From an uncultured virus (IMG/VR IMGVR_UViG_3300037307_000895) (taxonomy: Duplodnaviria > Heunggongvirae > Uroviricota > Caudoviricetes), in IMG/VR virus record IMGVR_UViG_3300037307_000895: a DNA stretch of 64,000 nucleotides; one strand, 5' to 3'. Under the pieces are notes generated by a model, which did no database searches, was not told the origin of the DNA, and saw only the letters and a program-made list of their open reading frames with translations. Every line of letters starts with the position of its first letter. Position 1 is the first letter of the stretch. Below, one piece after another: positions 3,572 to 47,669 of this stretch. A program made the position numbers and the translations under genes.

Positions 3572-3572
3572 C

Positions 3573-9806: not shown

Positions 9807-9815
9807 CATAAAATT

Positions 9816-9906: not shown

Positions 9907-9911
9907 CAAAT

Positions 9912-10000
9912 GGTGGGATACCCAAGTGGTTATAAGGGGCTTGCTTGGAAAGCAAGTAGGTCGTTAATTCGGCGCATGGGTTCGAATCCCATTCTCACCG
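9912..10000 (+). tRNA. tRNA-Ser(GGA)
   Basis: GGTGGGA/TCTCACC, CTTGC-TTGGAAA-GCAAG. Confidence 0.9.
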
Positions 10001-10015
10001 CTAAAAAATAAAATT

Positions 10016-21322: not shown

Positions 21323-21354
21323 TTTGGTGGTTTAAAAAAGTCATCGTATCTTTG
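21323..21354 (+). promoter_or_regulatory. Bacteroidetes-type promoter of the Tyr/Glu tRNA operon
   Basis: TTTG-N20-TATCTTTG. Confidence 0.75.
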
Positions 21355-21372
21355 TGAAACAAAGGAATAAAA

Positions 21373-21468
21373 ATGAACAACAGAATAGAAATATCAGTTA
21401 ACGGAGCTTCTTATGAAGCTTATTATTATGAGGAGGAAACTCGCTCAGTTGAACTGGCATTTCTATAA
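21373..21468 (+). CDS. attenuator leader peptide (Tyr/Glu-rich)
   Basis: MNNRIEISVNGASYEAYYYEEETRSVELAFL; AGTTGAACTGG pairs with the terminator arm. Confidence 0.85.
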   Translation: MNNRIEISVNGASYEAYYYEEETRSVELAFL

Positions 21469-21490
21469 TGTAACAGATAGAAATTCTTAT

Positions 21491-21521
21491 AACCCGGTTC
21501 AACTAATGAACCGGGTTTTTT
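21491..21521 (+). terminator. intrinsic terminator (attenuator)
   Basis: AACCCGGTTCA-actaa-TGAACCGGGTT plus T tract. Confidence 0.88.
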
Positions 21522-21525
21522 ATTT

Positions 21526-21607
21526 GGGTCAATCGCATAGCGGCAATTGCTGGGGACTGTAAATCCCCTCTCTTCGGAGTTCGTAGGTTCGAGTCCTACT
21601 TGGCCCA
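21526..21607 (+). tRNA. tRNA-Tyr(GUA)
   Basis: GGGGA-CTGTAAA-TCCCC, canonical. Confidence 0.92.
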
Positions 21608-21615
21608 CACAATTT

Positions 21616-21688
21616 GGTCCTGTCGTCTAATGGTTTAGGACGCGTCCCTTTCACGGATGAAATGCGGGTTCGATTCCCGTCAGGACTA
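21616..21688 (+). tRNA. tRNA-Glu(UUC)
   Basis: CGTCC-CTTTCAC-GGATG. Confidence 0.92.
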
Positions 21689-21697
21689 CAATTATAT

Positions 21698-21779
21698 GGA
21701 TTGTTAGCAAAGCGGCAAAGTCGGGTGGTTGTAACCCACCTCCCTTCGGGGTCCGTAGGTTCGAGTCCTACACAATCCA
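21698..21779 (+). tRNA. tRNA-Tyr(GUA)
   Basis: GGTGG-TTGTAAC-CCACC. Confidence 0.88.
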
Positions 21780-21787
21780 CAACAAAT

Positions 21788-21859
21788 GGTCCTGTCGGCT
21801 AATGGCTAGGCTATCTGATTTTCACTCAGAAGATGCGGGTTCGATCCCCGTCGGGACTA
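21788..21859 (+). tRNA. tRNA-Glu(UUC)
   Basis: TCTGA-TTTTCAC-TCAGA. Confidence 0.88.
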
Positions 21860-21867
21860 CAAAATAT

Positions 21868-21953
21868 GGGAGTATAACGCCAGCGGCACGTAAGCCGCCC
21901 CTAATCAAACAGGCGTACGGAAGGTAAGTATGGTTCAAATCCTGCTACTCCCA
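21868..21953 (+). tRNA. tRNA-like RNA, rearranged D-arm, 6-nt loop containing GTA
   Basis: GGGAGTA/TACTCCC; ACGCC/GGCGT helix enclosing GCGGC-ACGTAA-GCCGC. Confidence 0.55.
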
Positions 21954-21959
21954 CAAAAT

Positions 21960-22044
21960 GTCACGGTATGCAAATTGGTTAAGCGACCAGACTTTCAATC
22001 TGGGAACCGAATGGTTCGTGCGGGTTCGAACCCCGTCCGTGATA
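21960..22044 (+). tRNA. tRNA-Glu(UUC) with long variable arm
   Basis: CCAGA-CTTTCAA-TCTGG; GAACC/GGTTC variable stem. Confidence 0.85.
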
Positions 22045-22051
22045 CTAAAAC

Positions 22052-23752: not shown

Positions 23753-23784
23753 TTTGGTGGTTTAAAAAAGTCATCATATCTTTG
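23753..23784 (+). promoter_or_regulatory. Bacteroidetes-type promoter of the Ile/Gly/Ala tRNA operon
   Basis: TTTG-N20-TATCTTTG. Confidence 0.75.
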
Positions 23785-23801
23785 TAAAACAAACATTTAA
23801 A

Positions 23802-23873
23802 ATGAAACAAATTAATAACATATCAGCGATAGCACAAATAGGGGGAGGCGCCGGCGCGTCGTCTTGTGGCTGA
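23802..23873 (+). CDS. attenuator leader peptide (Ile(ATA)/Ala/Gly-rich)
   Basis: MKQINNISAIAQIGGGAGASSCG; TGTGGCTG pairs with CAGTCACA. Confidence 0.8.
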   Translation: MKQINNISAIAQIGGGAGASSCG

Positions 23874-23897
23874 GGTATGTTATTATAAAAGATATAC

Positions 23898-23958
23898 AAA
23901 ACCCAGTCACATCGACTGGGTTTTTAGTTTGAACCCAGTCACGAATGACTGGGTTTTT
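23898..23958 (+). terminator. tandem intrinsic terminators (attenuator)
   Basis: Two copies of AACCCAGTC..GACTGGGTTTTT. Confidence 0.85.
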
Positions 23959-23964
23959 CGATTT

Positions 23965-24047
23965 CGGTAGGTACCGGTGGTGTCTTATACACACTATAAC
24001 CGTAACTGGTATGTTGAAATATGTGGGTTCGAATCCCATCCTACCGA
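23965..24047 (+). tRNA. tRNA-Ile(UAU)-like, rearranged D-arm
   Basis: CGGTAGG/CCTACCG, GGTGT-CTTATAC-ACACT, CGGT/ACCG followed by TAACTGG. Confidence 0.65.
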
Positions 24048-24054
24048 CAAATAA

Positions 24055-24137
24055 GCGGGTATCGTATAATGGAGGCATATGCCAGATTATAGGAGCCTTC
24101 CAAGCTTCGGATGTCGGTTCGATTCCGACTACCCGCT
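24055..24137 (+). tRNA. tRNA-Gly(UCC), enlarged D-loop
   Basis: GCGGGTA/TACCCGC, GAGC-CTTCCAA-GCTT. Confidence 0.8.
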
Positions 24138-24145
24138 CATAATAT

Positions 24146-24222
24146 GGGGGTTGGGACTGCAATGGGGTGGTCACCTGACTTGCAATTAGGAAAACAGACG
24201 GTATCGTTCACCGTAACCTCCA
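24146..24222 (+). tRNA. tRNA-Ala(UGC), variant T-loop
   Basis: G3.U70, CCTGA-CTTGCAA-TTAGG. Confidence 0.75.
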
Positions 24223-24266
24223 CAACATGCCGGATGATCCACCGTTGAATCGCGGTGCCGGCTCCA

Positions 24267-24339
24267 GCGGAAGTAGCTCATTTGGTAGAGCGCGACCTTG
24301 CCAAGGTTGAGGCGGCCGGTTCAAGCCCGGTCTTCCGCT
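24267..24339 (+). tRNA. tRNA-Gly(GCC)
   Basis: CGACC-TTGCCAA-GGTTG. Confidence 0.92.
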
Positions 24340-24425
24340 CAAAAACCAGGAGAGTAAAACCTATACTGAGAATGTTCTGGGTGTGGTTACCTAGTTCAAT
24401 GGTGTAAGTGTAGGGTTCTCCACCT

Positions 24426-24496
24426 GCGAGAGTCGTATAATGGTATTACAGTGGCTTGCCATGTCACAGACGAGGGTTCGATTCCCTTCTCTCGCT
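24426..24496 (+). tRNA. tRNA-Gly(GCC)
   Basis: GTGGC-TTGCCAT-GTCAC. Confidence 0.9.
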
Positions 24497-24556
24497 CTAA
24501 GTTTAGATGAATCCATAAATCGATCAACAGAGGGCGTTGCCTATTCTAAGCTTTAT

Positions 24557-24630
24557 GGGGGTGTAGCTCAGCTGGCTAGAGCACCTGCTTTGCAAGCAGG
24601 GGGTCATCGGTTCGACTCCGTTCACCTCCA
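24557..24630 (+). tRNA. tRNA-Ala(UGC)
   Basis: Canonical, G3.U70. Confidence 0.93.
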
Positions 24631-24741
24631 CTAAACTTTGAAGTAAAGGTGAATGCTTCGGAGGAATCTATTAGAAGGAAACTATATACCACTTCCTTTT
24701 GAGAAATTCAAATTTTTTGATAAAAATTAAAATTTTAAAAA

Positions 24742-25260
24742 ATGAGAAAACTACAAAAAATTTGTATAAATTACGGAGTAAATGGTATTTTAGATAAAAA
24801 TCTAATAGACATATCAATGAATGAGTTGAAATTGATAACTAATCAAACCCCAACAATAACAAGGAGCAAAAAAGACATATCTAATTTCAAACTAAGAAAA
24901 GGAATGGAATTGGGTGTAAAAGTAACTCTGAGAGGTAGGAAAATGTATCAATTTTTAGATCATCTAATAGATTGTTTATTAAATTCATACGAATTTAAAG
25001 GATTAAATGCTAATTCATTTGATAAGCATGGAAATTACTCAATGGGTATTAAAGACCAAAGAATATTTACTGAAATTAATATAGATAATATCAAAAATGT
25101 TAATGGAATGGACATTACATTTGTAACAAACTGTAATAAAAGTGATTCTTTAATTTTACTAAATAAATTAAACCTACCATTTACAGTCGATAGAGAATTC
25201 AATATTACTAAAAGTGATAGAATAATAAAGTTTAATAAAAAATATAAATCAAGTGAGTAA
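24742..25260 (+). CDS. rplE: 50S ribosomal protein uL5 homolog
   Basis: KLQKICINYGV, SKKDISNFKLRKGMELGVKVTLRG, SFDKHGNYSMGIKDQRIFTEI, GMDITFVT. Confidence 0.9.
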   Translation: MRKLQKICINYGVNGILDKNLIDISMNELKLITNQTPTITRSKKDISNFKLRKGMELGVKVTLRGRKMYQFLDHLIDCLLNSYEFKGLNANSFDKHGNYSMGIKDQRIFTEINIDNIKNVNGMDITFVTNCNKSDSLILLNKLNLPFTVDREFNITKSDRIIKFNKKYKSSE

Positions 25261-30182: not shown

Positions 30183-30995
30183 ATGTATATGAAACAGAAA
30201 GACTCACTTGGCGATCGTATGAAATTTTACGAATCGCAAACCTGTGTGGAAAGATTACTTCCACTAATTCCAATTGTTGCCAGACTTGATGGTAAAGGAT
30301 TTTCTAAATTCACTAAAGGTTTGAAAAGACCTTATGATGAAAGACTGTCTAATCTGATGGTTGAAACCACTAAATACTTGGTTAAAGAAACCAACGCAAA
30401 CTGTGGTTATACTCAATCTGATGAAATTACTCTTGTTTGGTATTCTGAAGATCTCGAATCTCAAGTTTACTTCGATGGTAGAATTATGAAGATGGTTTCA
30501 GACCTAGCATCTATGTGCTCTGTCTTTTTCAACTCTAAACTGCCAGAATATCTTCCTGAAAAGTCAGATAAACTTCCAAGATTCGATTGTAGAGTATTCA
30601 GTGTTCCAACTCTAACTGAAGCAGTTAATGCTTTTTATTGGAGAGAAAAAGATGCTACCAAGAACTCTATTTCCATGTCTGCTCAATCTTTTTATTCTCA
30701 CAAGGAATTGATGAATAAAAACAGTGGTGAAAAACAAGAAATGCTTTTTCAAAAAGGTGTTAATTGGAATGATTATCCTTCTTTCTTCAAAAGAGGAACT
30801 TATGTTCAACGAAAGAGAGTGTTGACTAAATTTAGCGACGAAGAACTATCTAAACTTCCACCTAAACACAATGCTAGAAAAGATCCTGATTTTGTTGTTG
30901 AAAGATGGGTTATTGATAGAGTAAATCTACCACCACTATCAAAAATTAAGAATCAAGTAGATGTAATCATCTATGGAAAAGATCCGATTGAATAG
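30183..30995 (+). CDS. thg1: tRNA-His guanylyltransferase / Thg1-like protein
   Basis: ARLDGKGFSKFT, YTQSDEITL, FDGR..K, FDCR, WREKDA.KNS. Confidence 0.92.
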   Translation: MYMKQKDSLGDRMKFYESQTCVERLLPLIPIVARLDGKGFSKFTKGLKRPYDERLSNLMVETTKYLVKETNANCGYTQSDEITLVWYSEDLESQVYFDGRIMKMVSDLASMCSVFFNSKLPEYLPEKSDKLPRFDCRVFSVPTLTEAVNAFYWREKDATKNSISMSAQSFYSHKELMNKNSGEKQEMLFQKGVNWNDYPSFFKRGTYVQRKRVLTKFSDEELSKLPPKHNARKDPDFVVERWVIDRVNLPPLSKIKNQVDVIIYGKDPIE

Positions 30996-33551: not shown

Positions 33552-35483
33552 ATGAGGAAAATTATTTTATCTATTTTCACATTAATTTCTATCAGTACAT
33601 ACTCACAAACAGATACATCTAAAGTTGTTCAACTTGAAAATGTATCTGTTATGGGTATTAGAAGTGATAGAAAAACTCCAATATCTCAAAAAATAGTAAC
33701 CAAAAAACAAATTGAAAGAACCTATCAAGGTCAAGAAGTACCTATTCTTATAATGGAAAAAACTCCATCTGTTACATCATATATGGATGGTGGTCACCCA
33801 CAAGGATATACATACTTTAGGCTACGTGGTATTGACCAAACAAGGATTAATATGACACTTGATGGGGTTCCATTAAATGAACCCGAAGATCAAGGTGTTT
33901 ATACATCTAATTATCCAGGATTCACAAACTTTATTCAATCAATGCAAGTTCAAAGGGGAGTTGGTACTTCTACTAATGGTGTTGCGTCATATGGGGGTTC
34001 AATAAATTTTGTTACTAAATCAGGTTTTGAAAAAGAATCTGAAATTGCATTAGGATATGGATCTTTTAATACTATGAGATTCAATTTCTCAAATGGAACA
34101 GGTTTAAGTAAAAAGAATTTTGCTCTTTACACCAATTTATCTCTATATCAAACTGATGGGTATAGGTATAATTCTGGTGGAGATGGTGGATCTATATTTA
34201 TTAGTGGAGGTAAATATGGTGACAAAGATATCATTAAATTTTCTGCATTTAGTGGCATATCAAGAAACGGAATGGCTTGGCTTGGTGTATCTGAGGAAGA
34301 TATAAAAATAGATAAAAAAACAAATTATAATCAAAATGATGCTTGGGATGATTTTAGACAAACATTTACTCAAGGGAAATGGATAAGGAAAATAAATAGT
34401 AAAAGTAAATTCTCTACTGGATTATTTTATAATCGTTTAGACGGTTCTTATGACTATTTCATGAGTGGAAATCGATCTTTGTTTTTAGGATCCAACTTCT
34501 TTGGTTTAATCAATAATTATCAGTATAAAAGTAAAAACTTTAAATTTGATGCGGGGTTAAATATAAATACATATAATCGTGATCACAAAAATATTGAAGC
34601 CGACTATAAAAATAAAGGATTTAGAAATGAATTAAGCATTTTTTCTAAATTAAGTTATGATATTAGTAAATTTACTCTATTTACGGATCTTCAATATAGA
34701 TATAGTGATTTTTCATATGAAGGTGATGTCTCAATGGACAAACTAAAGTGGAATTTCTTTAATCCTAAATTCGGCATAGTTTATAATAAAAATAGTTATA
34801 TGAACTATTATTTTTCTATTGGAAAAACAGGTAGAGAACCAACCAGAACAAACTTATTTGGTGGATCAGATAATTTAACAACTTTAGAAAATGTATCACC
34901 CGAATCAGTAATCGATTATGAATTGGGCTTTAATAGGCGTCTGGAAAAATCGAATATACAAGCCAACTTATATTATATGGATTTCGAAAATGAAATAACT
35001 TTATTAGGTGCTATAGGAACTAATTCGCTACCTTTGATGACAAATGTTAGTAAAAGTTTTAGAAGTGGGATTGAACTGGATTATACAAGAACATCTGCTT
35101 TTGATATCATGTCAACCACTACAACTATAAACTACTCATTTAATAGAATTATAGATGGTGATACTAAATTTCAACCTCTATATACACCCGATTTAATAAT
35201 TAGTCAATCACTTGGTTTTAATTTTCATAAAATATTTCTTGAGGGAAACTTTAGATATAATAGCAAATCATATATCAGTTTAGATAATAAATATTCTATT
35301 CCTGACTTTGTAGTATTTGGAGCAAATGTGAGATATGATTATAAAAAATGGTCAGTATTAGGCCAATTAAATAATATTTTTAGTAATAATTACTACACAA
35401 TGGGATATGTAGTTGATAATGTAAAGTACTTATACACCAATGCTCCTGTTAGTTTTTACATAACAATAAAAAGGAAAATATGA
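33552..35483 (+). CDS. TonB-dependent receptor (vitamin/nucleoside uptake type)
   Basis: RLRGIDQTRINMTLDGVPLNEPE, QVQRGVGTSTNG plug; adjacent to pnuC. Confidence 0.9.
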   Translation: MRKIILSIFTLISISTYSQTDTSKVVQLENVSVMGIRSDRKTPISQKIVTKKQIERTYQGQEVPILIMEKTPSVTSYMDGGHPQGYTYFRLRGIDQTRINMTLDGVPLNEPEDQGVYTSNYPGFTNFIQSMQVQRGVGTSTNGVASYGGSINFVTKSGFEKESEIALGYGSFNTMRFNFSNGTGLSKKNFALYTNLSLYQTDGYRYNSGGDGGSIFISGGKYGDKDIIKFSAFSGISRNGMAWLGVSEEDIKIDKKTNYNQNDAWDDFRQTFTQGKWIRKINSKSKFSTGLFYNRLDGSYDYFMSGNRSLFLGSNFFGLINNYQYKSKNFKFDAGLNINTYNRDHKNIEADYKNKGFRNELSIFSKLSYDISKFTLFTDLQYRYSDFSYEGDVSMDKLKWNFFNPKFGIVYNKNSYMNYYFSIGKTGREPTRTNLFGGSDNLTTLENVSPESVIDYELGFNRRLEKSNIQANLYYMDFENEITLLGAIGTNSLPLMTNVSKSFRSGIELDYTRTSAFDIMSTTTTINYSFNRIIDGDTKFQPLYTPDLIISQSLGFNFHKIFLEGNFRYNSKSYISLDNKYSIPDFVVFGANVRYDYKKWSVLGQLNNIFSNNYYTMGYVVDNVKYLYTNAPVSFYITIKRKI

Positions 35484-38725: not shown

Positions 38726-40459
38726 AGAATATATCATAAAAGTAGAAAGTGAAAAATATCCATTTTTTGACATTAAAAATATAGACATTAGAGATATTAA
38801 AGAAATAGGTAATGGAAGCTTTGAAGTTAATTATGATTTTAGTGTTGTCTCACGAATGGACTCAAAATGGTCTTTAAATAGAAGGGAAAAGAGGGTTTTA
38901 AATCTTATGCAAATAAGAGAGGAAAGAATAAACCAAATTTTAGATGTTTGAATTTTTTAAAAAGAAGGAAAAAGAATATAAAGAAGCCGAATTTCGTATT
39001 TTTAGATATCGAACCCCAAAACTACATCTTGGAAATAACATCATTGGAAATCAAAATAAAATAATAAGATTAAAAGATATCATAGTTCAAGAAATTGGAG
39101 GGATGTGTGAATTAAATGACGATGGGCTAATTGGACATTCACCGATGTTTGTAGATTCTATTTTAGATAAACCACTAACTTGTGAATATGCCTATGCCAT
39201 TAATTGTGATGGTTCAGTTAAATTTTTTAATACAATTGAAGAATGTTTAGAATTTTATTTCTATTCATTTTCTATTTACTCAAATCCTTATAAAAACTTT
39301 TCTCCCGATGATCGTGTATCAACACTTAAATATATTGATATTCCTATAATATTAGAATTTATGATGGATAAATGTATTCCAGTTTTTATAAATGACAATT
39401 ATGAAATATTTAAAGACAGAACAAATGCTTTAATAGGATATCACAGTATTGAAATGAATAGTTTTATGAATGCACTTCCAAAAATATTTTATGGATCTTT
39501 TTATATGGATTCAAATAGTAGAATAGTACACTCAATATCAGAGGAACTTTTAACCATGGATATAATTGAAACCAAGTCAGCACCATATAAACCATATGCT
39601 AATATACCTGGTAATTGTTTTGATTCAAACGGATTTGTTTTTTATAAAAGTGATGTAATAGAATATTCTAACTACAAAGAATACTTAAGACTTAATAAAT
39701 CATTCTTGAGAGATAGGAAAATTGAATCTATTCTAAACTAATAAAAATAGTAATTATATAAAAAGGGTGCAGGATATTAATGAGAAAAAAATATTTAAAA
39801 AATTACCTGATTATTTTCATATAAATGAAAATTTGACTAATTTTCAAAGGAAATCTATATCATATTCGTTGACTAGTGAAATGATTCAAGAAATAGGAAT
39901 AGACCCAGAGCCTTATATTAATGATATAATTTCAAATGAAATATTATCATATATACAAAAAACTTGCTTTAAAAAAGATCAATATTCTAATCCTTACTTT
40001 TTAGACGAAAGGGATAAAGATGAACAAAGAATTGTTGATGACTTATCTTATTTAACTTATTGTGAGTGTAAAAAATATTTCATTTCATCACCTAGAATAG
40101 TGACCTTACTATCAAATCATCCAATGTTTTCTGTATATTTTTCACACGCAGCTGGTATTGGAAGTTTATATAGTTTAATAGGAAAATATGATAAAACAGA
40201 AATATTAATTAATAACCTATTAAAACATGATGATAATTTTATACTACTATTTGATAGTGTTGAAATATCATTGAAAATAATTGATTCGAAAATTGTTGAC
40301 GAGGCAACATTTTCCCCAAGGACTATAATAGAATTTTTATTCGATTATAGAGTAATAAATCCCAAACCGGTTTATTTTATTGAAAATAAAGATTCGGAAT
40401 TCTATAGTGAATTTCTATTAAAGATTAGAGATGAAAAGATTAATAAAATTATAAATTAA
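38712..40459 (+). CDS. three hypothetical proteins with C-terminal tag (38712-38951, 38944-39741, 39767-40459)
   Basis: End IREERINQIL, LRDRKIESILN, IRDEKINKIIN. Confidence 0.55.
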
Positions 40460-40886
40460 TCTTTTGTACTATATCATCAAGAAATTCTTTAGATTCTTCT
40501 TCTGATAAATCATTTAAATCCTTACCATGTTCAACTGAAAAAGCATAATCACCAAGCTTTATTAGCTTTTTACCAGGTCCATCATTATCATATATTACAA
40601 TTTTCTTTTGTGGTAAGGTTTTTAACCAACCTACTAATTGTGGGCTTGGGTCATTACATAAAACTGCAATTCCAGGATATCCCGCCTGATGGACTCTCGC
40701 GATATCAAATATTCCTTCAGTTATAAATAAAAACTTATCTGTAAAATTATAAGATTCTAATCCCCATACAGCAATTTTCTTACCATATTGTTCATCTCCG
40801 ACCCAGTTATAATATTTTGTATCCTTAACATTATCTCTTTGACCTTTCTTTGGAAATTTTGGATTATACTTTTGATATCCAACCAT
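40449..40886 (-). CDS. TOPRIM-domain primase-like protein (N-terminus possibly truncated or frameshifted)
   Basis: FITEGIFD, YDNDGPG, KDLND. Confidence 0.75.
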   Translation of the reverse strand: MVGYQKYNPKFPKKGQRDNVKDTKYYNWVGDEQYGKKIAVWGLESYNFTDKFLFITEGIFDIARVHQAGYPGIAVLCNDPSPQLVGWLKTLPQKKIVIYDNDGPGKKLIKLGDYAFSVEHGKDLNDLSEEESKEFLDDIVQKINL

Positions 40887-41006
40887 TTGGTAATATCAAA
40901 ATATTGGCTTATCTTTGTATTAATAGTTGTTAATCTATTCAAAATTAACTGGTGGCGTTAAAGAAGTTCACGATAGTAACTTCCTAACAAATAAAATTAG
41001 GAAGAA

Positions 41007-41234
41007 ATGAAAAAGTTACTAGAGTTAATTGAACAACTCAAAATGGCCGAAAAAGAACAAAAAGAATTCTCTCAAATTGTTCGTAGAAAAATAAAAGGTA
41101 AATATGACCACAATAAACACCAAGCTTATATGGCGATTTACAATCACTATGGAATGAGAGAGAGATATGAAAAAATCAGAAATCTTAAACAAAAAATAAA
41201 TCAACTTCGTTTAAGATACTGGTATTGGGAATAA
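41007..41234 (+). CDS. hypothetical protein
   Basis: ORF track. Confidence 0.5.
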   Translation: MKKLLELIEQLKMAEKEQKEFSQIVRRKIKGKYDHNKHQAYMAIYNHYGMRERYEKIRNLKQKINQLRLRYWYWE

Positions 41235-41240
41235 AAAATA

Positions 41241-41272
41241 TTTGGTAGAAATAAAAAAAGTTTCTATCTTTG
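41241..41272 (+). promoter_or_regulatory. Bacteroidetes-type promoter of the large tRNA operon
   Basis: TTTG-N20-TATCTTTG; TAATATATA at ~41316. Confidence 0.75.
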
Positions 41273-41344
41273 TGTAACAAATCTCAAAAAAGATAAAAAG
41301 AGAGATTAAACTTTTAATATATAACAATATATAATAAACTAATT

Positions 41345-41458
41345 ATGAAACTGAATAACAGAAATATGACGATTATGAACCTCAATATGGTGGTGATTAC
41401 ATTATGTAATAGAACCTCATATCCGGGTTTTGCTCATATTCCTGATATTATTGTATAA
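41345..41458 (+). CDS. attenuator leader peptide (Leu/Asn/Arg/Met/Thr/Ile/Val/Cys)
   Basis: MKLNNRNMTIMNLNMVVITLCNRTSYPGFAHIPDIIV; TCCGGGTTT pairs with AGACCCGGA. Confidence 0.8.
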   Translation: MKLNNRNMTIMNLNMVVITLCNRTSYPGFAHIPDIIV

Positions 41459-41479
41459 TAGTTGTTGGAAGTAGTAGTA

Positions 41480-41510
41480 AAGACCCGGAACCAAAAGTTT
41501 CGGGTTTTTT
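41480..41510 (+). terminator. intrinsic terminator (attenuator)
   Basis: AAGACCCGGAAC..GTTTCGGGTTTT plus T tract. Confidence 0.85.
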
Positions 41511-41516
41511 ATTTAT

Positions 41517-41600
41517 GGCTCTGTGGCGAAATTGGTACGCGTCAGACTTAAAATCTGATGGACTGAAAAGTCCGTGTCGGTTCGACCCCGACCAGAGCCA
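41517..41600 (+). tRNA. tRNA-Leu(UAA)
   Basis: TCAGA-CTTAAAA-TCTGA. Confidence 0.92.
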
Positions 41601-41609
41601 CAACAAATT

Positions 41610-41697
41610 GGCTGAGTGGTGGAAGTAAACATGGTAGACACACTAGTCTTAGAAACTAGTACCGAAAGGTGTGAGGGTTCGAGTCCCTCCTTGGTCA
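41610..41697 (+). tRNA. tRNA-Leu(UAG)
   Basis: CTAGT-CTTAGAA-ACTAG. Confidence 0.88.
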
Positions 41698-41709
41698 CAA
41701 CAAAAATAA

Positions 41710-41788
41710 GCCTCCGTAGTCGAGTGTGCCTTCTAAGCATTTAATCGTAACGGAACTGAAAATGTGGGTTCGAATCCCACCGGAGGTT
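41710..41788 (+). tRNA. tRNA-Arg(UCU)-like, rearranged D-arm
   Basis: GCCTCCG/CGGAGGT, GTGC-CTTCTAA-GCAT, CGA/TCG followed by TAACGG. Confidence 0.65.
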
Positions 41789-41793
41789 CAAAT

Positions 41794-41878
41794 GGATGGG
41801 TTGCTTTAGAGGCCGAAAAGTCTGGGCTGTTAACCCAGTGTCGCAAGACCGCCGTGGGTTCGAATCCCACCCCATCCT
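41794..41878 (+). tRNA. tRNA-Asn(GUU), long variable arm
   Basis: CTGGG-CTGTTAA-CCCAG. Confidence 0.85.
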
Positions 41879-41883
41879 CACAT

Positions 41884-41957
41884 TGGAATGTAGCTCAAAT
41901 GGTTAGAGCGCGAAGCTGATACCTTCGAGGTAGTGGGATCGTTACCCGCCATTCCAA
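41884..41957 (+). tRNA. tRNA-Ile(GAU)
   Basis: CGAAG-CTGATAC-CTTCG; variant T-loop. Confidence 0.82.
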
Positions 41958-41959
41958 CA

Positions 41960-42050
41960 AGGGAAAAAATAAAAGAAGAGATAGAAAAATGTGTCTTAGT
42001 GTGTTCTAATTGTCATAGAGAGATACATTACGGTATAATTGATATAGAAA
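41960..42050 (+). pseudogene. HNH endonuclease C-terminal remnant
   Basis: Spacer translates REKIKEEIEKCVLVCSNCHREIH. Confidence 0.6.
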
Positions 42051-42131
42051 CGGCGTGTAACCCTCAATCCTGATAAGATTGCTACGGGTAATTGGTAAGT
42101 GAAAATGCAGGTTCGATTCCTGTCACGCCGA
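42051..42131 (+). tRNA. tRNA-Ile(GAU)-like, rearranged D-arm
   Basis: CGGCGTG/CACGCCG, CAATC-CTGATAA-GATTG, ACCC/GGGT followed by AATTGGTA. Confidence 0.68.
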
Positions 42132-42137
42132 CAAAAT

Positions 42138-42223
42138 TGATCGGTGGCCCGAGTGGCGAAGGGTCCGGCCTGTTAAGCCGACGTAGTAAAATACCACCGT
42201 GGGTTCGAGTCCCACCCGATCAG
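42138..42223 (+). tRNA. tRNA-Asn(GUU), long variable arm
   Basis: CGGC-CTGTTAA-GCCG. Confidence 0.85.
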
Positions 42224-42229
42224 CAATAA

Positions 42230-42314
42230 GCGCGGATGGTTCGAGTGGTCGAAGACGACAGTCTGCAAAACTGTATCCGAAAGGTCATCGTGAGTTCAAA
42301 TCTCACTCCGCGCT
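42230..42314 (+). tRNA. tRNA-Cys(GCA), long variable arm
   Basis: ACAGT-CTGCAAA-ACTGT, U73. Confidence 0.87.
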
Positions 42315-42320
42315 CAACAA

Positions 42321-42397
42321 GCCTTTGTAGCTTTAACTGGTAGAGCACCTGACTTGTAATCAGGGGGTTGCAGGTTCGAGTCCTGTTGAAGGCTCCA
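42321..42397 (+). tRNA. tRNA-Thr(UGU)
   Basis: CCTGA-CTTGTAA-TCAGG, encoded CCA. Confidence 0.92.
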
Positions 42398-42403
42398 ATA
42401 ATT

Positions 42404-42491
42404 GGGTCTATGGTGTAATGGCTAAACATCCTTCCCTTACAAGGAAGAGACGAGAAGTATGATCTTGGTTCGAATCCAAGTAGACCCACCA
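42404..42491 (+). tRNA. tRNA-Val(UAC), long variable region
   Basis: CTTCC-CTTACAA-GGAAG, encoded CCA. Confidence 0.85.
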
Positions 42492-42496
42492 AAAAT

Positions 42497-42579
42497 GCCG
42501 ATGTGGCTCAGTGGCGACAGCAATGGTTTTGTAAACCATCACCGTAAGGTCATCGGGGGTTCGAGTCCCTCCATCGGCT
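42497..42579 (+). tRNA. tRNA-Thr(UGU), long variable arm
   Basis: ATGGT-TTTGTAA-ACCAT. Confidence 0.85.
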
Positions 42580-42588
42580 CAGAAATAG

Positions 42589-42662
42589 AGTCTCATAGCT
42601 CAGTTTGGGAGAGCGCTTCTGTGACATGGAAGAGGCCACCGGTTCGACCCCGGTTGAGACTA
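42589..42662 (+). tRNA. tRNA-Val(GAC)
   Basis: CTTCT-GTGACAT-GGAAG. Confidence 0.85.
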
Positions 42663-42710
42663 CAAATAGTGATGGTGATGATGTAACCCCATCATCCGGG
42701 TTCATCACTA

Positions 42711-42782
42711 TGGAGAGTAGCTCAGTTGGTAGAGCACCGGACTGATTTCCGGTGGTCGATGGTTCGAGTCCATCCTCTCCAA
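42711..42782 (+). tRNA. tRNA-Ile(GAU)-like with 6-nt anticodon loop
   Basis: CCGGA-CTGATT-TCCGG, otherwise canonical. Confidence 0.6.
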
Positions 42783-42788
42783 CAAATT

Positions 42789-43050
42789 AGGGAAGTAACT
42801 CAGTGGCAGAGTATCCCCAGACATGGGGGGAAAGTCGTTAGGTTCGATTCCAGCCTTCCCTACAAATCAACGGTCTGATCAACTGTTGACTGAATGGTTC
42901 GAAACATTCGATTGATTATGGTGTAAAGGGCACACCCGTTTCGTAGGGAGGTTTAAGGTTCGATTCCTTATTAATCAACAAAGTGGGAGATTAAGGGACA
43001 CACTCTGGGTTAAACCCCAGAAATAGATAGGTTCAACTCCTATCCCCACA
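42789..43050 (+). ncRNA. three tRNA-like elements with undetermined anticodons (42789-42862, 42912-42979, 42983-43050)
   Basis: Acceptor stems and TTC T-loops present; anticodon arms aberrant. Confidence 0.5.
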
Positions 43051-43054
43051 AAAT

Positions 43055-43127
43055 GCCGTAGTCGTATAATGGTTGATTACACGCCGTTGGTATCGGTGAG
43101 ATGGCAGTTCGAATCTGCTCTATGGCT
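43055..43127 (+). tRNA. tRNA-Thr(GGU)
   Basis: CGCCG-TTGGTAT-CGGTG. Confidence 0.88.
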
Positions 43128-43239
43128 CTGTAAGCATGGTAGTTGCCCTTGTTTGACTGAAATAGTTTAACCCGCAGATAAGCTAGAAGTAAGGAAAAAA
43201 CAAAAAATCTACTCGTCACTGCGGGAAGTGACGTTTTAT

Positions 43240-43320
43240 GTCCAGATGATGAAATTGGTAAACATACCGGCATGAGAGGCCGGCGCCAAAAGCTTGTAGG
43301 TTCGAATCCTGCTCTGGGCA
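43240..43320 (+). tRNA. tRNA-Leu(GAG)
   Basis: CCGGC-ATGAGAG-GCCGG. Confidence 0.85.
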
Positions 43321-43321
43321 C

Positions 43322-43476
43322 TGATGTTGTGGCGGAATTAGGTATACGCGGGGGTCTGGTTCGATATGATTGATGTTGGGTAAACTCCAATGTCTTCCAC
43401 TCAAGAACGAAAACCGCCGTCTGATGGATAAGTGGATAATGAAGTCAGATTGTGGGTTCGAGTCCCACCAACACAA
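43322..43476 (+). ncRNA. Leu-like tRNA scaffold with an insert replacing the anticodon loop
   Basis: TGTTG/CAACA, GCG..CGC D-arm, ~55-nt insert, GTCTGA/TCAGAT variable stem, canonical T-arm. Confidence 0.5.
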
Positions 43477-43478
43477 AT

Positions 43479-43561
43479 GGATTTGTGGCGAAATTGGTAG
43501 CACGCGCTAGTCTTAGGAACTAGTACCGAAAGGTGTGAGGGTTCGACCCCCTCCAAATCCA
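43479..43561 (+). tRNA. tRNA-Leu(UAG)
   Basis: CTAGT-CTTAGGA-ACTAG. Confidence 0.92.
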
Positions 43562-43569
43562 CTAAAAAT

Positions 43570-43655
43570 GCCGCTGTGAACCGATGTGGTAATGGTGCCT
43601 CCCTCATAAGGAGGTTGGTTTTATCCTATTGCTGGTTCGAGTCCAGCCAGCGGTA
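43570..43655 (+). tRNA. tRNA-Met/Ile2(CAU), long variable region
   Basis: CCTCC-CTCATAA-GGAGG. Confidence 0.82.
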
Positions 43656-43656
43656 C

Positions 43657-43821
43657 ATGAATATAGACTTAGATAAACAAATTGAACTAACAAAGATTGA
43701 GTTAGATTCTTACAAATCAAATAAGTATTCTGCTAAAGAAATTGTTGATTGGTTAGAATCTGTTTATAAATCTTTATTAGAATTAAAAAGGCTCAATGGC
43801 GAAATTGGGAGTACGCGATAG
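43657..43821 (+). CDS. small hypothetical protein inside the tRNA array
   Basis: MNIDLDKQIELTK...; 3' end overlaps tRNA-Leu. Confidence 0.4.
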   Translation: MNIDLDKQIELTKIELDSYKSNKYSAKEIVDWLESVYKSLLELKRLNGEIGSTR

Positions 43822-43874
43822 ACTCAAAATCTATTGGTAGAAATACCGTGTGGGTTCGATGCCCACTTGAGCCA
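43790..43874 (+). tRNA. tRNA-Leu(CAA)
   Basis: ATAGA-CTCAAAA-TCTAT. Confidence 0.9.
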
Positions 43875-43876
43875 CT

Positions 43877-44098
43877 ATGGTTTATGGTGTTAATAAATGT
43901 TTGTATAAAATAATTGGACTAAATGGTGATAAAAAGGTGGGTACTATAAAAGTAGTAGCACACACCAAATTAGAAGCTTATTATTATTGCAAAGACTTAT
44001 TACCAAAACATAATAAATTCGACTATCATCATATAAAATTTGTTGATTGTGAATGTGGTCCGATTTTAGAAAAAAATGATTTAAAAAGAAAGAAATGA
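43877..44098 (+). CDS. hypothetical protein
   Basis: ORF track; its stop overlaps the asn leader ATG. Confidence 0.5.
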   Translation: MVYGVNKCLYKIIGLNGDKKVGTIKVVAHTKLEAYYYCKDLLPKHNKFDYHHIKFVDCECGPILEKNDLKRKK

Positions 44099-44142
44099 AA
44101 ATGATTGTAAATAACAGGAATAATTTAACAGATTCGGTCTGA
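44095..44142 (+). CDS. attenuator leader peptide (Asn/Arg-AGG)
   Basis: MKMIVNNRNNLTDSV; GTCTGAT pairs with ATCAGAT of the terminator. Confidence 0.78.
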   Translation: MKMIVNNRNNLTDSV

Positions 44143-44172
44143 TTGGATATTCCTTGCTAAAAAATACAAGAT

Positions 44173-44200
44173 AACCCATCAGATTTCTGATGGGTTTTTT
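44173..44200 (+). terminator. intrinsic terminator (attenuator of asnS)
   Basis: AACCCATCAGA-tt-TCTGATGGGTT plus T tract. Confidence 0.85.
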
Positions 44201-44228
44201 ATTTAAAAAAAAATTAAAAATTAAAATT

Positions 44229-45407
44229 ATGAAAGGGTGGATTAAATCAATACGTCAATCAAAAAGCTTGATGTTTATTTCAGTAACAGATGGTGTTAAA
44301 GATCATCAATTAACCTTGAAAGAAGGTGAATATGAACTTGAAGGTGAATTAAAAGTAGGTGCTTCATTTACTGCAGAAGGTTATGACTCTATAACACCGA
44401 AAGGGTTCGAAGAATTTGTAGTATCTAAAATGATAATAATTGGAGAATCAGATGATGAATATCCAATACAACCAAAAAGGCACTCATTTGACTTCCTAAG
44501 AACTATACCTGAATTGAGAGGAAGAACAAAAGGATTTCAATCAACTTGGAAGATAAGACATTACTTATCTCAACTAATTCACCAATTTATGTCTGAAAAG
44601 GGATTTTTTCAATATTGGACACCAATTATAACTCAAGCGGATTGTGAAGGAGCTGGTGAAACATTTACTGTTAAGTCTGATTGGTTAGAAGAAAAATTAA
44701 CAGTTTCAGGCCAACTACATGGTGAAGTAGGAATGATGTCTCTTGGAAAAATCTATACTTTTGGACCTTGTTTTAGAGCGGAAAAGTCTGCTACTAAAAA
44801 ACATTTGTCTGAATTTTGGATGTTAGAGCCTGAAATGGCATTCTATTCTTTAGAAGATACTATTTCTTTTTCCGAGGAAATGTTGAAGTATGTATTAACT
44901 CAAATAGTTAAACATGAAGAAGATTTCAAAAGACTTGAGATTGATACTTCTCATATAACATCTATCATAGATAAAGATTGGGTTAAAATTAGATATGAAG
45001 ATGTTTGTAAAGAATTTAAATTAGATTTTGGAGAAGATGTTTCTTCAGAGATTGAGAAGATGATGATAGATAAATATAAATTGCCTATTTATATTACACA
45101 TTGGCCAAAAGATTTGAAACCATTCTATATGAAAAAGTTTGAAGAATATGCTTATTGTTTTGACTTAATTTTTCCAGAAGTTGGTGAATTGATAGGTGGT
45201 TCTGAAAGAGAAGACTCTTATCAAATTCTGAAAGATGAAATGGAGAAAAGTGGATTAGATATGAGTAAGATGGATTGGTATTTAAAAACAAGAAAGTGGG
45301 GCTCGGTTCCACACTCTGGATTTGGACTTGGTTTTGATAGATTAGTAACATTTGTTTGTAAACTACAAAAGATTCATGATTCGATACCCTTCCCAATAGG
45401 GTATTGA
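44229..45407 (+). CDS. asnS: asparaginyl-tRNA synthetase
   Basis: DCEGAGETF, LTVSGQLHGE, FGPCFRAEKS, HLSEFWMLEPEMAF, GELIGGSERE, PHSGFGLGFDR. Confidence 0.95.
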   Translation: MKGWIKSIRQSKSLMFISVTDGVKDHQLTLKEGEYELEGELKVGASFTAEGYDSITPKGFEEFVVSKMIIIGESDDEYPIQPKRHSFDFLRTIPELRGRTKGFQSTWKIRHYLSQLIHQFMSEKGFFQYWTPIITQADCEGAGETFTVKSDWLEEKLTVSGQLHGEVGMMSLGKIYTFGPCFRAEKSATKKHLSEFWMLEPEMAFYSLEDTISFSEEMLKYVLTQIVKHEEDFKRLEIDTSHITSIIDKDWVKIRYEDVCKEFKLDFGEDVSSEIEKMMIDKYKLPIYITHWPKDLKPFYMKKFEEYAYCFDLIFPEVGELIGGSEREDSYQILKDEMEKSGLDMSKMDWYLKTRKWGSVPHSGFGLGFDRLVTFVCKLQKIHDSIPFPIGY

Positions 45408-45412
45408 TATAA

Positions 45413-45484
45413 GGTCCCGTAACTTAACGGAAAAGTCACATCCTCCTAAGATGTTGTATATGGGTTCGAATCCCATCGGGACTT
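45413..45484 (+). tRNA. tRNA-Arg(CCU)
   Basis: GGTCCCG/CGGGACT, ACATC-CTCCTAA-GATGT. Confidence 0.9.
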
Positions 45485-45596
45485 CATTTTTAAAATTTTT
45501 TAAAAATGAATAGCTGAAAAGTTAAATATTATATATATATGTAATATTCTCACGTCATTCTTACCCACACTATAGTTAAAAAATCACATAATAAAT

Positions 45597-47669
45597 ATGG
45601 GTAAAGTTACAATTACAGTCGATTGTGAGGATGGTTCAATATATGGACTACAAGGTCCTCAAGGATTACAAGGATCACAAGATGGGGCGGGAAATCAGGG
45701 AAATCAGGGATTACAAGGTCCAGGAGGAAGCACATCAACAGGAGTTCAAGGAAATCAGGGATTACAAGGAAGTGGTTCCTCAGGAAGTCAAGGACCTCAA
45801 GGGAATAATGGATTACAAGGTCCATCCGGAAGCGGTCAAGGAACACAAGGATTACAAGGTCCTATTGGTCCAGCTAGAAATGGATCAGGAAATGGGATTT
45901 TTGAAGTCGGATGGATAAATGTGGCTGATTATGGAGCAATTGGTGGTGCTGATTCGACATTAGCATTTAAACAAGCTGTCCAGGCTGCCATAGATAATGG
46001 TTATCATAAAATTTGGATTCCTGCTTCTACAGATCCCTATATTATTAAAGAAACTATAAAGTTTCCAGGTAATTTCAGAGCATGGGTTGTTAAAGGAGCT
46101 GGTAATGCAGATGGTGGTGCTGTAGAAAAAAGAACTAAACTTTTATGGCAAGCTAAGCAAGGAGCCTGTTTGAATTTCGTAGCTACTAGACTTGGTTATA
46201 TCGCAGACTTTGAAATAGAGGGAGAAAATGATAAACCATATGATGTAGTTGAGAAATATAGAAATAAAGCAGAAGTTTGGAATCCTCAATTCTGGGTTAA
46301 AGATGGATATTCCATAGATAGAAATGCTGCATATTCAGGTATAGCCTTTGATGAAAATCAAACCTCCCCTCCATGGGCTGCTCAAACTCAAATAGAAAGA
46401 GTAAAAATTACAAAATGTGTAGTAGGTTTTAACATTAGTTCGACTCAAGGGAGTCAACAAGCAGATACAATATGGTTAAAAGATACAAAGGTTGAAAACT
46501 GTGTATACGGATATGCTATAAACCAAGACCAGTGTAGAGCTATTACAATTGAAAATGCATGGGTTAATAATTGTTACTCTGCCTTTACAAATAATAAGTT
46601 TGGAGATGGTCAAGGTTCAGCATTTAATGTATTTGGAGGTCAATTTACTACTTGTTTTAAATTATTTGAATGTACAGAAGCTTATGCAGGACAATGTTCT
46701 ATTAATGGTATATTTGCAGAAGCTTGCGGAATATTAGGGGCATGGCAACCATTTGGTATAAATGAAAACCCTGTTGTATTTACAGCTTGTGAATTTGGAC
46801 TAGATAATAACGCATGGGAAGATGATTCTAGTCTACACTGGGTTACTCCTCTCGTAACTTATGAAGGAAGTGGTATTAACGATACATTCATAGGATGTAA
46901 GTTCCGTTCACAAAAAGATATTTTAGGTTTTGCTGGTGGTACATTTATTAATACTCAATTTACGGAGCTAAATAATTTATTTTTCTCTGTTCCTTTAGAT
47001 GTATCAATACAGGGAAGATCTAGATTTAAAAATACAAAATTGAGATTTGAAGACCATATCGATTTACATGAATCTCATAAATGGTATGTTCGACCTGAAA
47101 TAAGAAATATAAGAGAGTATACTAATAATGAGAATGTTTACCCAAAATATAAAATCTACAATACAGAATCTCATTTAGGAACTTGGTATAATGTAACTTA
47201 TAGAATGTTACCAGATACAAATCCTGATACATTCACTTGGGACCTTCCACAAAATGAGGCTGAACAATTCCAATTGGGTGACTATATGAACGGATATGTA
47301 GGAAGTACTATGAAGATATCAGGAATGGGACTAAAATTTGGAGAAGCGTGGGTTCCAGCTTGGAAAGTAATTTCTAAAAATGGAAACTCTGTAACATTTA
47401 AGAAATCTGCGCCTGAAATAGAATCTAATGTTTCTGGAAAAGATAATCATTCTGGACAAGTATTTTCCGGAAACAAAGGATGGGTATGTGGTGTTCCCAT
47501 AGAGGTGATGGAAAGTGGTAAAGAAGTGTTTGTTAAAAACGGAAATAGGTTAGAAGTTGGAGATATATGTAATATCAATGGTCAATTAACGAGAGTAGTT
47601 TCTGTTGATGATAAAGTTAAGTTTGCTCATAATATAACAGAAGGATTTGTTAAAAGTGTGTCTTATTAA
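45597..47669 (+). CDS. collagen-like repeat plus pectate-lyase-like beta-helix protein (tail fibre/spike candidate)
   Basis: GxQ triplets; INVADYGAIGGADSTLAFKQA. Confidence 0.7.
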   Translation: MGKVTITVDCEDGSIYGLQGPQGLQGSQDGAGNQGNQGLQGPGGSTSTGVQGNQGLQGSGSSGSQGPQGNNGLQGPSGSGQGTQGLQGPIGPARNGSGNGIFEVGWINVADYGAIGGADSTLAFKQAVQAAIDNGYHKIWIPASTDPYIIKETIKFPGNFRAWVVKGAGNADGGAVEKRTKLLWQAKQGACLNFVATRLGYIADFEIEGENDKPYDVVEKYRNKAEVWNPQFWVKDGYSIDRNAAYSGIAFDENQTSPPWAAQTQIERVKITKCVVGFNISSTQGSQQADTIWLKDTKVENCVYGYAINQDQCRAITIENAWVNNCYSAFTNNKFGDGQGSAFNVFGGQFTTCFKLFECTEAYAGQCSINGIFAEACGILGAWQPFGINENPVVFTACEFGLDNNAWEDDSSLHWVTPLVTYEGSGINDTFIGCKFRSQKDILGFAGGTFINTQFTELNNLFFSVPLDVSIQGRSRFKNTKLRFEDHIDLHESHKWYVRPEIRNIREYTNNENVYPKYKIYNTESHLGTWYNVTYRMLPDTNPDTFTWDLPQNEAEQFQLGDYMNGYVGSTMKISGMGLKFGEAWVPAWKVISKNGNSVTFKKSAPEIESNVSGKDNHSGQVFSGNKGWVCGVPIEVMESGKEVFVKNGNRLEVGDICNINGQLTRVVSVDDKVKFAHNITEGFVKSVSY

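Follow-up and report, generated by a model that had tools for sequence, protein, structure and literature searches.

What controls an aminoacyl-tRNA synthetase gene that a phage carries behind an array of transfer RNA (tRNA) genes, when a short open reading frame (ORF) and an intrinsic terminator stand between the two? The question is raised by a 64,000-nucleotide stretch of an uncultured virus of the Caudoviricetes (IMG/VR record IMGVR_UViG_3300037307_000895), the whole of which is referred to here as the window. This is AT-rich DNA of a huge (giant freshwater) phage, with 29.5% GC and 40 tRNA genes, and it holds on its + strand asnS, the gene for an asparaginyl-tRNA synthetase (AsnRS), followed by a gene for tRNA-Arg(CCU). 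We propose, from the sequence and from RNA folding models, that the element upstream of asnS (44095-44200, about 105 nt as a whole) is probably a ribosome-mediated Asn/Arg transcription attenuator which gates both genes. An attenuator at this place had been suggested in the initial annotation of this DNA, which named neither the hairpin nor the terminator, and its parts are all found: a leader ORF with a block of Asn and Arg codons, a hairpin between regions 1 and 2, an antiterminator between regions 2 and 3, and a terminator between regions 3 and 4, kept in four contigs.

The leader ORF (44095-44142; 13-15 codons, peptide MKMIVNNRNNLTDSV) ends in a TGA stop codon at 44140-44142. A second in-frame ATG, at 44101, is the start that aligns with relatives, not the ATG at 44095. 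The core of the leader is the codon block AAT AAC AGG AAT AAT (N N R N N; 44110-44124). Hairpin A, which is formed by regions 1 and 2 (44116-44154), has the AGG AAT codons as its 5' arm and contains the stop codon in its 3' arm. Region 2, the antiterminator strand (44136-44146), contains UCUGA and the stop codon, and its partner lies at 44175-44185. The intrinsic terminator, formed by regions 3 and 4 (44173-44200), has a 10-bp stem (44173-44196) with five G-C pairs, and a T-run at 44195-44200. The distance from the T-run to the ATG of asnS is just 33 nt, and that from the leader stop codon to the same ATG is 86 nt. Upstream, the leader is preceded by a 73-codon ORF (ORF73; 43877-44098, + strand), the TGA of which overlaps the leader ATG as ATGA. 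ORF73 has no family match and is not kept in relatives.

The genes behind the leader are well identified. The product of asnS (44229-45407; 392 amino acids, no Asn codon) matches TIGR00457 with 390.6 bits (cutoff 342.6) and PF00152 with 1e-62, its best PDB matches are AsnRS (1.4e-76), and the class II motifs FRAE and GFGLGFDR are seen in the translation. The tRNA-Arg(CCU) gene (45413-45485, + strand) starts 5 nt past the asnS stop codon and is recognised both by ARAGORN (as CCT) and by Rfam (58.9 bits). The annotated order of leader core, asnS and tRNA-Arg(CCU), together with the ATGA overlap, is therefore confirmed by ORF, family and tRNA searches. That these two genes lie directly behind the leader stands, but that they are the only genes downstream is no more than plausible, because no canonical terminator was found 3' of tRNA-Arg(CCU), only AT-rich hairpins. 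The product of the next gene (45597-47669) has 690 amino acids, carries collagen-like GxQ repeats and matches no Pfam family.

The Asn run of the leader exceeds chance expectation. Asn accounts for 7.9% of the 15,799 codons in the 67 ORFs of the window, and among its 633 small ORFs (10-40 codons, both strands) only two have at least four Asn in five codons. A five-codon stretch purely of Asn and Arg occurs once among the 633, in the asnS leader alone. The corresponding counts in Markov-2 random sequence were 15 and 4 of 21,060 small ORFs.

Conservation was followed in 13 related phage contigs (window included) that carry an asnS of the same clade or a gene resembling that of arginyl-tRNA synthetase (ArgRS-like). 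The closest record to the window is the uncultured phage LR745206.1 (634,780 bp; L001), and the phage GenBank collection holds no other close record. The element is present in 4 of the 13, namely the window, L001, L119 and L120. In L001 the leader reads MKTMTINNRNRLTDII, with the block AAT AAT AGA AAC AGG, and is followed by asnS and the ArgRS-like gene. The L119 leader (MKLMVNNRNRETDSV; AAT AAT AGG AAT AGA) stands before the ArgRS-like gene, a stump of asnS and tRNA-Arg(CCU), and that of L120 (MIQVRNRNNTEQI; AGA AAT AGA AAT AAT) before a truncated ArgRS-like gene; no asnS was found on the L120 contig, which is 79% complete by CheckV. In amino acids the relatives' cores are NNRNR (L001 and L119) and RNRNN (L120), compared with NNRNN in the window, always five codons and always N or R only. 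The tails of the leader peptides vary, L120 reads the homologous nucleotides in another frame, and the window and L001 show synonymous differences in four of eight conserved codons. Selection therefore seems to act on the codons and the stop position rather than on the peptide sequence.

In the other contigs the surroundings of these genes differ. The asnS gene abuts another gene in L002 and L088, where the element is absent, and nothing resembling it was seen in L116, L117, L118 and L129. L127 has the terminator only, and L128 only an Arg-rich upstream ORF (uORF), with no terminator. In L003 an N/K/R-rich uORF overlaps the asnS start, again without a terminator; it begins MSNKNKNRNNER and runs out of frame over the start (L003:2973-3060). 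This may represent the same control exerted at translation, or no more than an A-rich stretch at the gene start. A scan of IMG/VR with the leader pattern gave no matches, a second pattern recovered only L119 and L120, and none was found in genome_contigs.

The RNA of the leader region folds with a z-score of -3.5, and none of 200 shuffles folds as well. When untranslated, all four leaders form hairpin A and the terminator (-25.9 to -29.0 kcal/mol). A stalled ribosome was modelled by masking the RNA with block codon 1, 3 or 5 in the A site and ending it at the terminator loop. In all four sequences regions 2 (UCUGAU.GG) and 3 (CC.AUCAGA) then pair with each other, with energies of -10.5 to -13.1 kcal/mol; these masked folds are thermodynamic predictions only. 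With the ribosome at the stop codon the terminator is the sole structure formed. Shuffled versions of region 2 equalled the antiterminator in 6, 1, 14 and 3 of 1000 trials for the four sequences.

The position of the stop codon is also kept. It is a TGA within UCUGA in the window, L001 and L119, and a TAG immediately 5' of UCUGA in L120. RNAalifold applied to the four sequences gives 21 pairs, four of them with compensatory double changes, three of which are in the terminator. In the antiterminator pairing (UCUGA:UCAGA), 97% of 35 cells are paired, and the share falls to 15-38% once the partner strand is displaced by 1-3 columns. UCAGA is invariant, and in L119 and L120 it lies partly in the terminator loop, so the terminator stem alone cannot explain its conservation. 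A scan with Rfam of 40000-47000 (E up to 1) gave no match in 43876-44229, T-box included, and a T-box or other known RNA family was accordingly rejected for the leader.

Anatomy, conservation, alternative folds and amino-acid purging were computed, and from them we infer stalling, read-through and the physiological signal. The element would sense the speed at which Asn codons and AGR (AGA or AGG) Arg codons are decoded. Transcripts would start at the promoter of the tRNA array at 41241 and reach the leader having passed the array's own attenuator. With fast translation, the ribosome would arrive at the stop codon within region 2 and keep that region from pairing, the terminator would form, and transcription would end at about 44200. 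If charged tRNA-Asn or tRNA-Arg were scarce, a ribosome stalled on AAT, AAC or AGG would cover region 1 and free region 2, which could then pair with region 3. No terminator would form in that case, and RNA polymerase would continue into asnS and tRNA-Arg(CCU). A leader that is not translated would form both hairpin A and the terminator, and transcription would also terminate.

The composition of the synthetases is evidence separate from the RNA folds. The AsnRS of the window has no Asn in 392 residues, which at 7.9% Asn has a binomial P of 8e-15, and asnS is the lowest in Asn among the 43 window ORFs of at least 150 amino acids (the next lowest has 3.9%). As controls, 30 AsnRS from cellular-like and other viral loci were used, taken from two sets of loci (21 of the 80 of a metagenome scan with an AsnRS alignment and 9 of the 28 of a second set) where the match starts at position 3001 and spans the protein. 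All 30 have 11-32 Asn. The 80 loci of the metagenome scan are all 36-42% identical, unlike the phage clade. A protein that is needed during an aminoacyl-tRNA shortage should avoid the codon concerned, and purging of this kind therefore fits the attenuator. Because asnS has no Asn codons, AsnRS could be translated under the very shortage that would induce it.

AsnRS in the phages with the leader has no Asn (0 of 392 in the window and in L001), and in those without it one (L003, 392 residues), two (L088, 397) or four (L002, 404). The ArgRS-like protein has no Arg in five of the nine loci for which it was computed (L001, L119, L120 with 219 residues, L127 and L128), one in L116, L118 and L003, and three in L129. 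We do not claim that freedom from the cognate residue tracks the presence of the leader, as the ArgRS-like proteins of L127 and L128 are Arg-free without the element. Other synthetases behave similarly. Threonyl-tRNA synthetase (ThrRS) has no Thr in L003 (346 residues; TIGR00418, 482 bits) or in L120 (349 residues; 476 bits), and aspartyl-tRNA synthetase (AspRS) of L124 has no Asp in 425 residues and 58 Glu (NF003483, 493 bits), all three scores being above cutoff. A lysyl-tRNA synthetase-like (LysRS-like) protein of L125 has a single Lys in 400 residues and 36 Arg, and a tryptophanyl-tRNA synthetase-like (TrpRS-like) protein of the window has no Trp in 240, which is weak alone (P = 0.03). These cognate-poor synthetase loci include 44229-45407 and 2196-2918 in the window, L001:4338-5516, L003:1704-2744 and 4444-5619, L120:2776-3825, L124:1447-2724 and L125:1141-2343. 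Both ThrRS match only positions 218-565 of the model and lack the N-terminal editing part. Both frames stay open 5' of the first ATG and read there as typical ThrRS, without a further ATG (L003:1560-1703; L120:2640-2775), so that the assigned starts are tentative.

The asnS leader was described in the initial annotation as nested at the end of the array, and this is borne out by the promoters. Promoters were searched as TTTG-N19-21-TAnnTTTG, which we take to be the Bacteroidetes consensus. The motif has 16 matches in the window, compared with 2.4 expected, and 16 was reached in none of 100 shuffles; a scan of the window for sigma-70-type promoters showed no enrichment. Going upstream from the asnS leader, the first recognisable promoter is the match at 41241-41272 (TTTG-N20-TATCTTTG, + strand). 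It is followed by an outer attenuator (41345-41509, + strand), with a leader ORF at 41345-41458 (MKLNNRNMTIMNLNMVVITLCNRT...) and a terminator at 41479-41509, and then by the Leu/Asn/Ile/Cys/Thr/Val/Met tRNA array (41517-43875, + strand), one member of which, at about 41710-41788, is a tRNA-Arg(UCU)-like gene. No TAnnTTTG, the -7 half of the motif, occurs on the + strand from 41272 to 44756. As there is no motif on this strand between 41272 and asnS, the asnS leader must be fed by the array promoter at 41241. A promoter for asnS 3' of the terminator was considered and rejected, with no motif and just 33 nt of room. The asnS attenuator would be an inner, second-stage element without a promoter of its own, which gates the synthetase and one tRNA and is dual for Asn and Arg.

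Relatives place the leader differently. The -7 box of a promoter lies directly 5' of the leader in L001, L119 and L120, with a full match to the motif in L001 and L119 and the -7 box TATATTTG alone in L120. In the window ORF73 occupies that place. Coupling of the leader to the upstream ORF, as originally suggested, is consistent with the ATGA overlap seen in the window, but the overlap is absent in all three relatives, which have the -7 box there instead. The ATGA overlap is, on this comparison, a peculiarity of the phage of this window.

Why should the leader also contain arginine? The annotation had treated AGG as a rare codon that matches the downstream tRNA. AGG is not rare: it is the second commonest Arg codon of the window (86 of 547; 5.4 per 1000, with AGA at 24.5 per 1000). 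The Arg codons of the leaders are AGG in the window, AGA and AGG in L001, AGG and AGA in L119, and AGA twice in L120. Conservation of AGG in relatives that keep tRNA-Arg(CCU) had been named beforehand as the test, and it is not strict, as L120 keeps this tRNA on its contig and has a leader free of AGG. What stands of codon-level design is that AGG is found in three of the four leaders and in both units with tRNA-Arg(CCU) behind the terminator (the window and L119). Within the window the Arg codons of three leaders match the local isoacceptor: tRNA-Arg(ACG) is preceded by CGT or CGA (and one AGA), the tRNA-Arg(UCU)-like gene by AGA, and tRNA-Arg(CCU) by AGG.

Across contigs, the leader Arg codons track the ArgRS-like gene at least as well as they track tRNA-Arg(CCU). 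This gene, part of the unit in the relatives, encodes a class I synthetase-like protein of 389-392 amino acids whose best family is ArgRS. PF00750 is matched with 26.4 bits (cutoff 23.3) in L001, and is the top family in all four further members, the member shown being below the cutoff. In Foldseek the 16 best-ranked matches listed (ranks 1-19, the ranks left out being further chains of the same entries) are all ArgRS, at a template modelling (TM) value of about 0.3 and for a model with a predicted local distance difference test (pLDDT) value of 53. In L120 the gene ends early, at 219 codons (L120:3992-4651), and by tblastn it is absent from the window. In L119 the first 13 codons of asnS are fused to the 5' half of a copy of tRNA-Arg(CCU) (L119:5152-5310), and an intact tRNA-Arg(CCU) follows. 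This stump is identical to the start of the window asnS at 41 of 47 nt, including 11 nt upstream, and asnS must therefore once have been in that unit and been lost by deletion. We read the ancestral unit as asnS, the ArgRS-like gene and tRNA-Arg(CCU), of which different lineages lost different parts, and such a unit would explain the dual Asn/Arg leader.

The same comparison could be turned towards arginine alone. The element might be an attenuator that is essentially a sensor of Arg (AGR) codons for a module of the ArgRS-like gene and tRNA-Arg, with the Asn codons as filler or as letters of the hairpin and asnS as a passenger. In L119 and L120, where asnS is absent, the gene next to the leader is indeed the ArgRS-like one, no leader is free of AGR codons, and the codons of the block do build the 5' arm of hairpin A. 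We nevertheless regard this as unlikely. The L119 stump, with its 13 codons, shows that asnS was formerly in the unit, and the balance of the codons shifts with the genes: the window, without an ArgRS-like gene, has four Asn codons and one Arg codon, and the units with that gene three and two. Five-codon blocks of N and R only are also very rare by chance, as the counts in small ORFs given above illustrate, and the purging of Asn from AsnRS makes sense only if a shortage of Asn-tRNA matters. A further reading is a plain, possibly leaky, intrinsic terminator that ends the transcript of the array or of ORF73, behind a fortuitous short ORF and with no sensing at all. A scan of IMG/VR with the terminator sequence found three loci (L005, L006 and L007), all in unrelated contexts, where the same hairpin is a plain terminator; the L001-type hairpin is bidirectional there and lies between convergent genes (L005:2976-3001; L006 and L007:3003-3028). 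L127 has a terminator before its ArgRS-like gene without an N/R leader, and Asn codons are abundant in AT-rich DNA. Yet the ORF, the N/R block and the stop in region 2 are kept in four contigs in which the surroundings and the terminator stems diverge, and a block of this kind arises by chance at about 1e-3 to 2e-4 per small ORF. The complementarity of regions 2 and 3 beats that of shuffled sequences, and with a -7 box directly before the leader in three relatives, the terminator there ends only the leader. We consider a plain terminator very unlikely.

Least credible to us is control at translation, by coupling or re-initiation from ORF73 through the ATGA, or by a uORF that tunes the translation of asnS, rather than by termination. 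In its favour are the ATGA overlap in the window and the uORFs without terminators in L003, where an N/K/R-rich frame runs out of frame over the asnS start, and in L128, where the frame is R-rich. However, the leader stop codon and the asnS ATG are 86 nt apart with a strong terminator between them, none of the three relatives with the element has the ATGA, and it is the terminator and antiterminator that are conserved, not the surroundings of the asnS start.

Several points weigh against the Asn/Arg attenuator that we prefer. It is known from just four sequences, all related, and it is missing from 9 of the 13 related contigs that have asnS or the ArgRS-like gene, so it is dispensable. The L119 and L120 leaders retain three Asn codons, yet no asnS follows. 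The core of the antiterminator does not vary (6 of its 10 pairs are invariant) and its shuffle control is uninformative (254 of 500), and we therefore call the pairing conserved and claim no proof from covariation. L001 keeps the outer stem of hairpin A with its register shifted, so that the stem does not correspond column by column. The leader of the window has no promoter of its own, and transcripts must cross at least 16 tRNA genes to reach it. The ArgRS assignment is weak, with TIGR00456 scores of 39-43 bits, far below cutoff, no match of the protein to the PDB by phmmer and an AlphaFold model of low pLDDT, and the gene is therefore labelled ArgRS-like only. Termination, read-through and translation of the leader are, throughout, computational predictions; among the sequencing runs listed as containing this DNA, none is of RNA.

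The asnS element does not stand by itself in this phage. Five units of promoter, leader and terminator precede tRNA arrays in the window (1178-2918, 8888-10001, 21323-22045, 23753-24631 and 41241-43875), and the composition of each of the five leaders mirrors the amino acids of its own array. The leader at 1243-1341 (HKHFSKFHFWF) precedes a His/Phe/Trp array, that at 8954-9019 (SSSRSSNSS) an Arg/Ser array, that at 21373-21468 (YEAYYYEEE) a Tyr/Glu array, and that at 23802-23873 (GGGAGA) a Gly/Ala array. The fifth, NNRNMTIMNLNMVVITLCNRT at 41345-41458, belongs to the Leu/Asn/Ile/Cys/Thr/Val/Met array that leads to asnS, and is conserved in L001 at 318-434. All five units have a predicted antiterminator, formed by the terminator's 5' arm and an overlapping stretch in the 3' portion of the leader, and shuffles equalled this pairing in 0, 36, 0, 0 and 1 of 300 trials.

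Further sequences of this type were noticed. A Lys-rich mini-ORF, MTNIKNIKKTKKRIRVVRW (3272-3331), lies just 5' of three tRNA-Lys genes (3394-3733), with no terminator seen, and L125 has comparable K/R-rich mini-ORFs before tRNA-Lys genes and its LysRS-like gene. In L124, from the phage of L003, an Asp-containing leader, MTIKRIKLADDCLTCLTVTD, and a terminator lie before AspRS (L124:1285-1446), and a copy of the terminator 3' arm (a region-2 copy) is within the leader.

The tRNA genes themselves are unusual in places. Many of those of types that normally have a short variable arm are 84-95 nt long (1597-1687, 3394-3488, 41794-41879, 42138-42315, 42404-42491, 43570-43656 and others). Four tRNA-like stretches missed by ARAGORN score 25-33 bits with Rfam (41615-41691, 41710-41788, 42051-42131 and 42913-42978), and the gene at 42711-42783 has an unreadable anticodon. 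The long or missed tRNA genes may carry insertions or introns. Other genes of the window include those for the TrpRS-like protein, ribosomal protein L5, Thg1, RNA ligase and TonB-dependent receptors. Two TonB-dependent receptor-like proteins, L5, a Thg1-like tRNA-His guanylyltransferase, an NMN transporter and a NadR-like protein were noted at 15647-18118, 33552-35483, 24742-25260 and 30183-30995. The TonB receptors and other genes, together with the promoter motif, lead us to infer a host among the Bacteroidota.

If the Asn/Arg attenuator is real, a phage, the pair Asn and Arg, and a unit of synthetase and tRNA would be added to the range of classical attenuation, with two attenuators in series. 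The element of about 105 nt could also be a compact sensor of Asn/Arg decoding capacity. A broader suggestion, which we put forward tentatively and rate at somewhat under an even chance, is that the translation genes of huge phages form a self-bootstrapping, demand-sensing module, made of attenuated tRNA blocks and of synthetases from each of which its own amino acid has been purged. All tRNA blocks, and several synthetases (AsnRS and ArgRS-like, and AspRS in a relative), would then be behind codon-matched attenuators, some of them nested in two stages that release tRNAs first and a synthetase if stalling persists. Purged synthetases would be translatable with their own aminoacyl-tRNA essentially absent, which implies that these phages regularly encounter, or themselves bring about, an almost complete loss of certain charged tRNAs in the host. 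Possible causes include a mismatch of codon demand in a genome of 29.5% GC, host defences that target tRNA, and host shut-off. The aminoacyl-tRNA synthetase and tRNA genes of phages would in that case be an inducible rescue system and not constitutive spare parts, and an inducible supply during slow codon decoding could explain the presence of synthetases and dozens of tRNAs in huge phages. Synthetases free of their own residue would be a simple sequence signature, which can be screened for across viromes and tells of the condition of synthesis.

We found no report of leader-peptide attenuation of phage tRNA or aminoacyl-tRNA synthetase genes and no publication on synthetases devoid of their cognate residue, in searches that left out most subscription journals. 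The same searches gave no report of an Asn-sensing attenuator, and no publication in them combines asparaginyl-tRNA synthetase, leader peptide and attenuation. The purging of cognate residues from phage synthetases is apparently undescribed.

Among known systems, the pheST attenuator of Escherichia coli is close in design. There the pheM leader peptide, rich in cognate codons, and a terminator with alternative pairings precede a synthetase gene. The element shares with pheST-pheM a leader ORF of cognate codons and a terminator with alternative pairings before an aminoacyl-tRNA synthetase gene. In contrast to pheST, it is encoded by a phage, would read Asn and Arg rather than Phe, has a tRNA gene in the unit, is nested behind a second attenuator, has no sequence homology to pheST, and precedes an enzyme fully purged of the cognate residue. 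Attenuators that respond to more than one amino acid are those of thr (Thr/Ile) and ilvGMEDA (Ile/Val/Leu), and the four-region model is that of trp. The element resembles these in its four-region logic, in a stop codon in or beside region 2 and in a block of codons for two amino acids, whereas its targets would be a synthetase and a tRNA and not biosynthetic enzymes. T-box riboswitches precede aminoacyl-tRNA synthetase genes of Firmicutes, asnS included, bind tRNA directly and need no translation. Their purpose would be the same, namely to supply more synthetase if its tRNA is uncharged, through a choice between terminator and antiterminator, but the element here is about 105 nt with an ORF inside and no Rfam cis-regulatory match. 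The five tRNA-array units of the window share the same leader-attenuator design and the same phage context. The purging has its own counterpart in the low cognate-amino-acid bias of amino-acid biosynthetic enzymes, where proteins needed during an amino-acid shortage are likewise reported to contain little of that amino acid (PMC4209129). The phage synthetases go further, reaching no cognate residue in about 350-425 amino acids (AsnRS, ArgRS-like, ThrRS and AspRS) and a single Lys in the LysRS-like protein.

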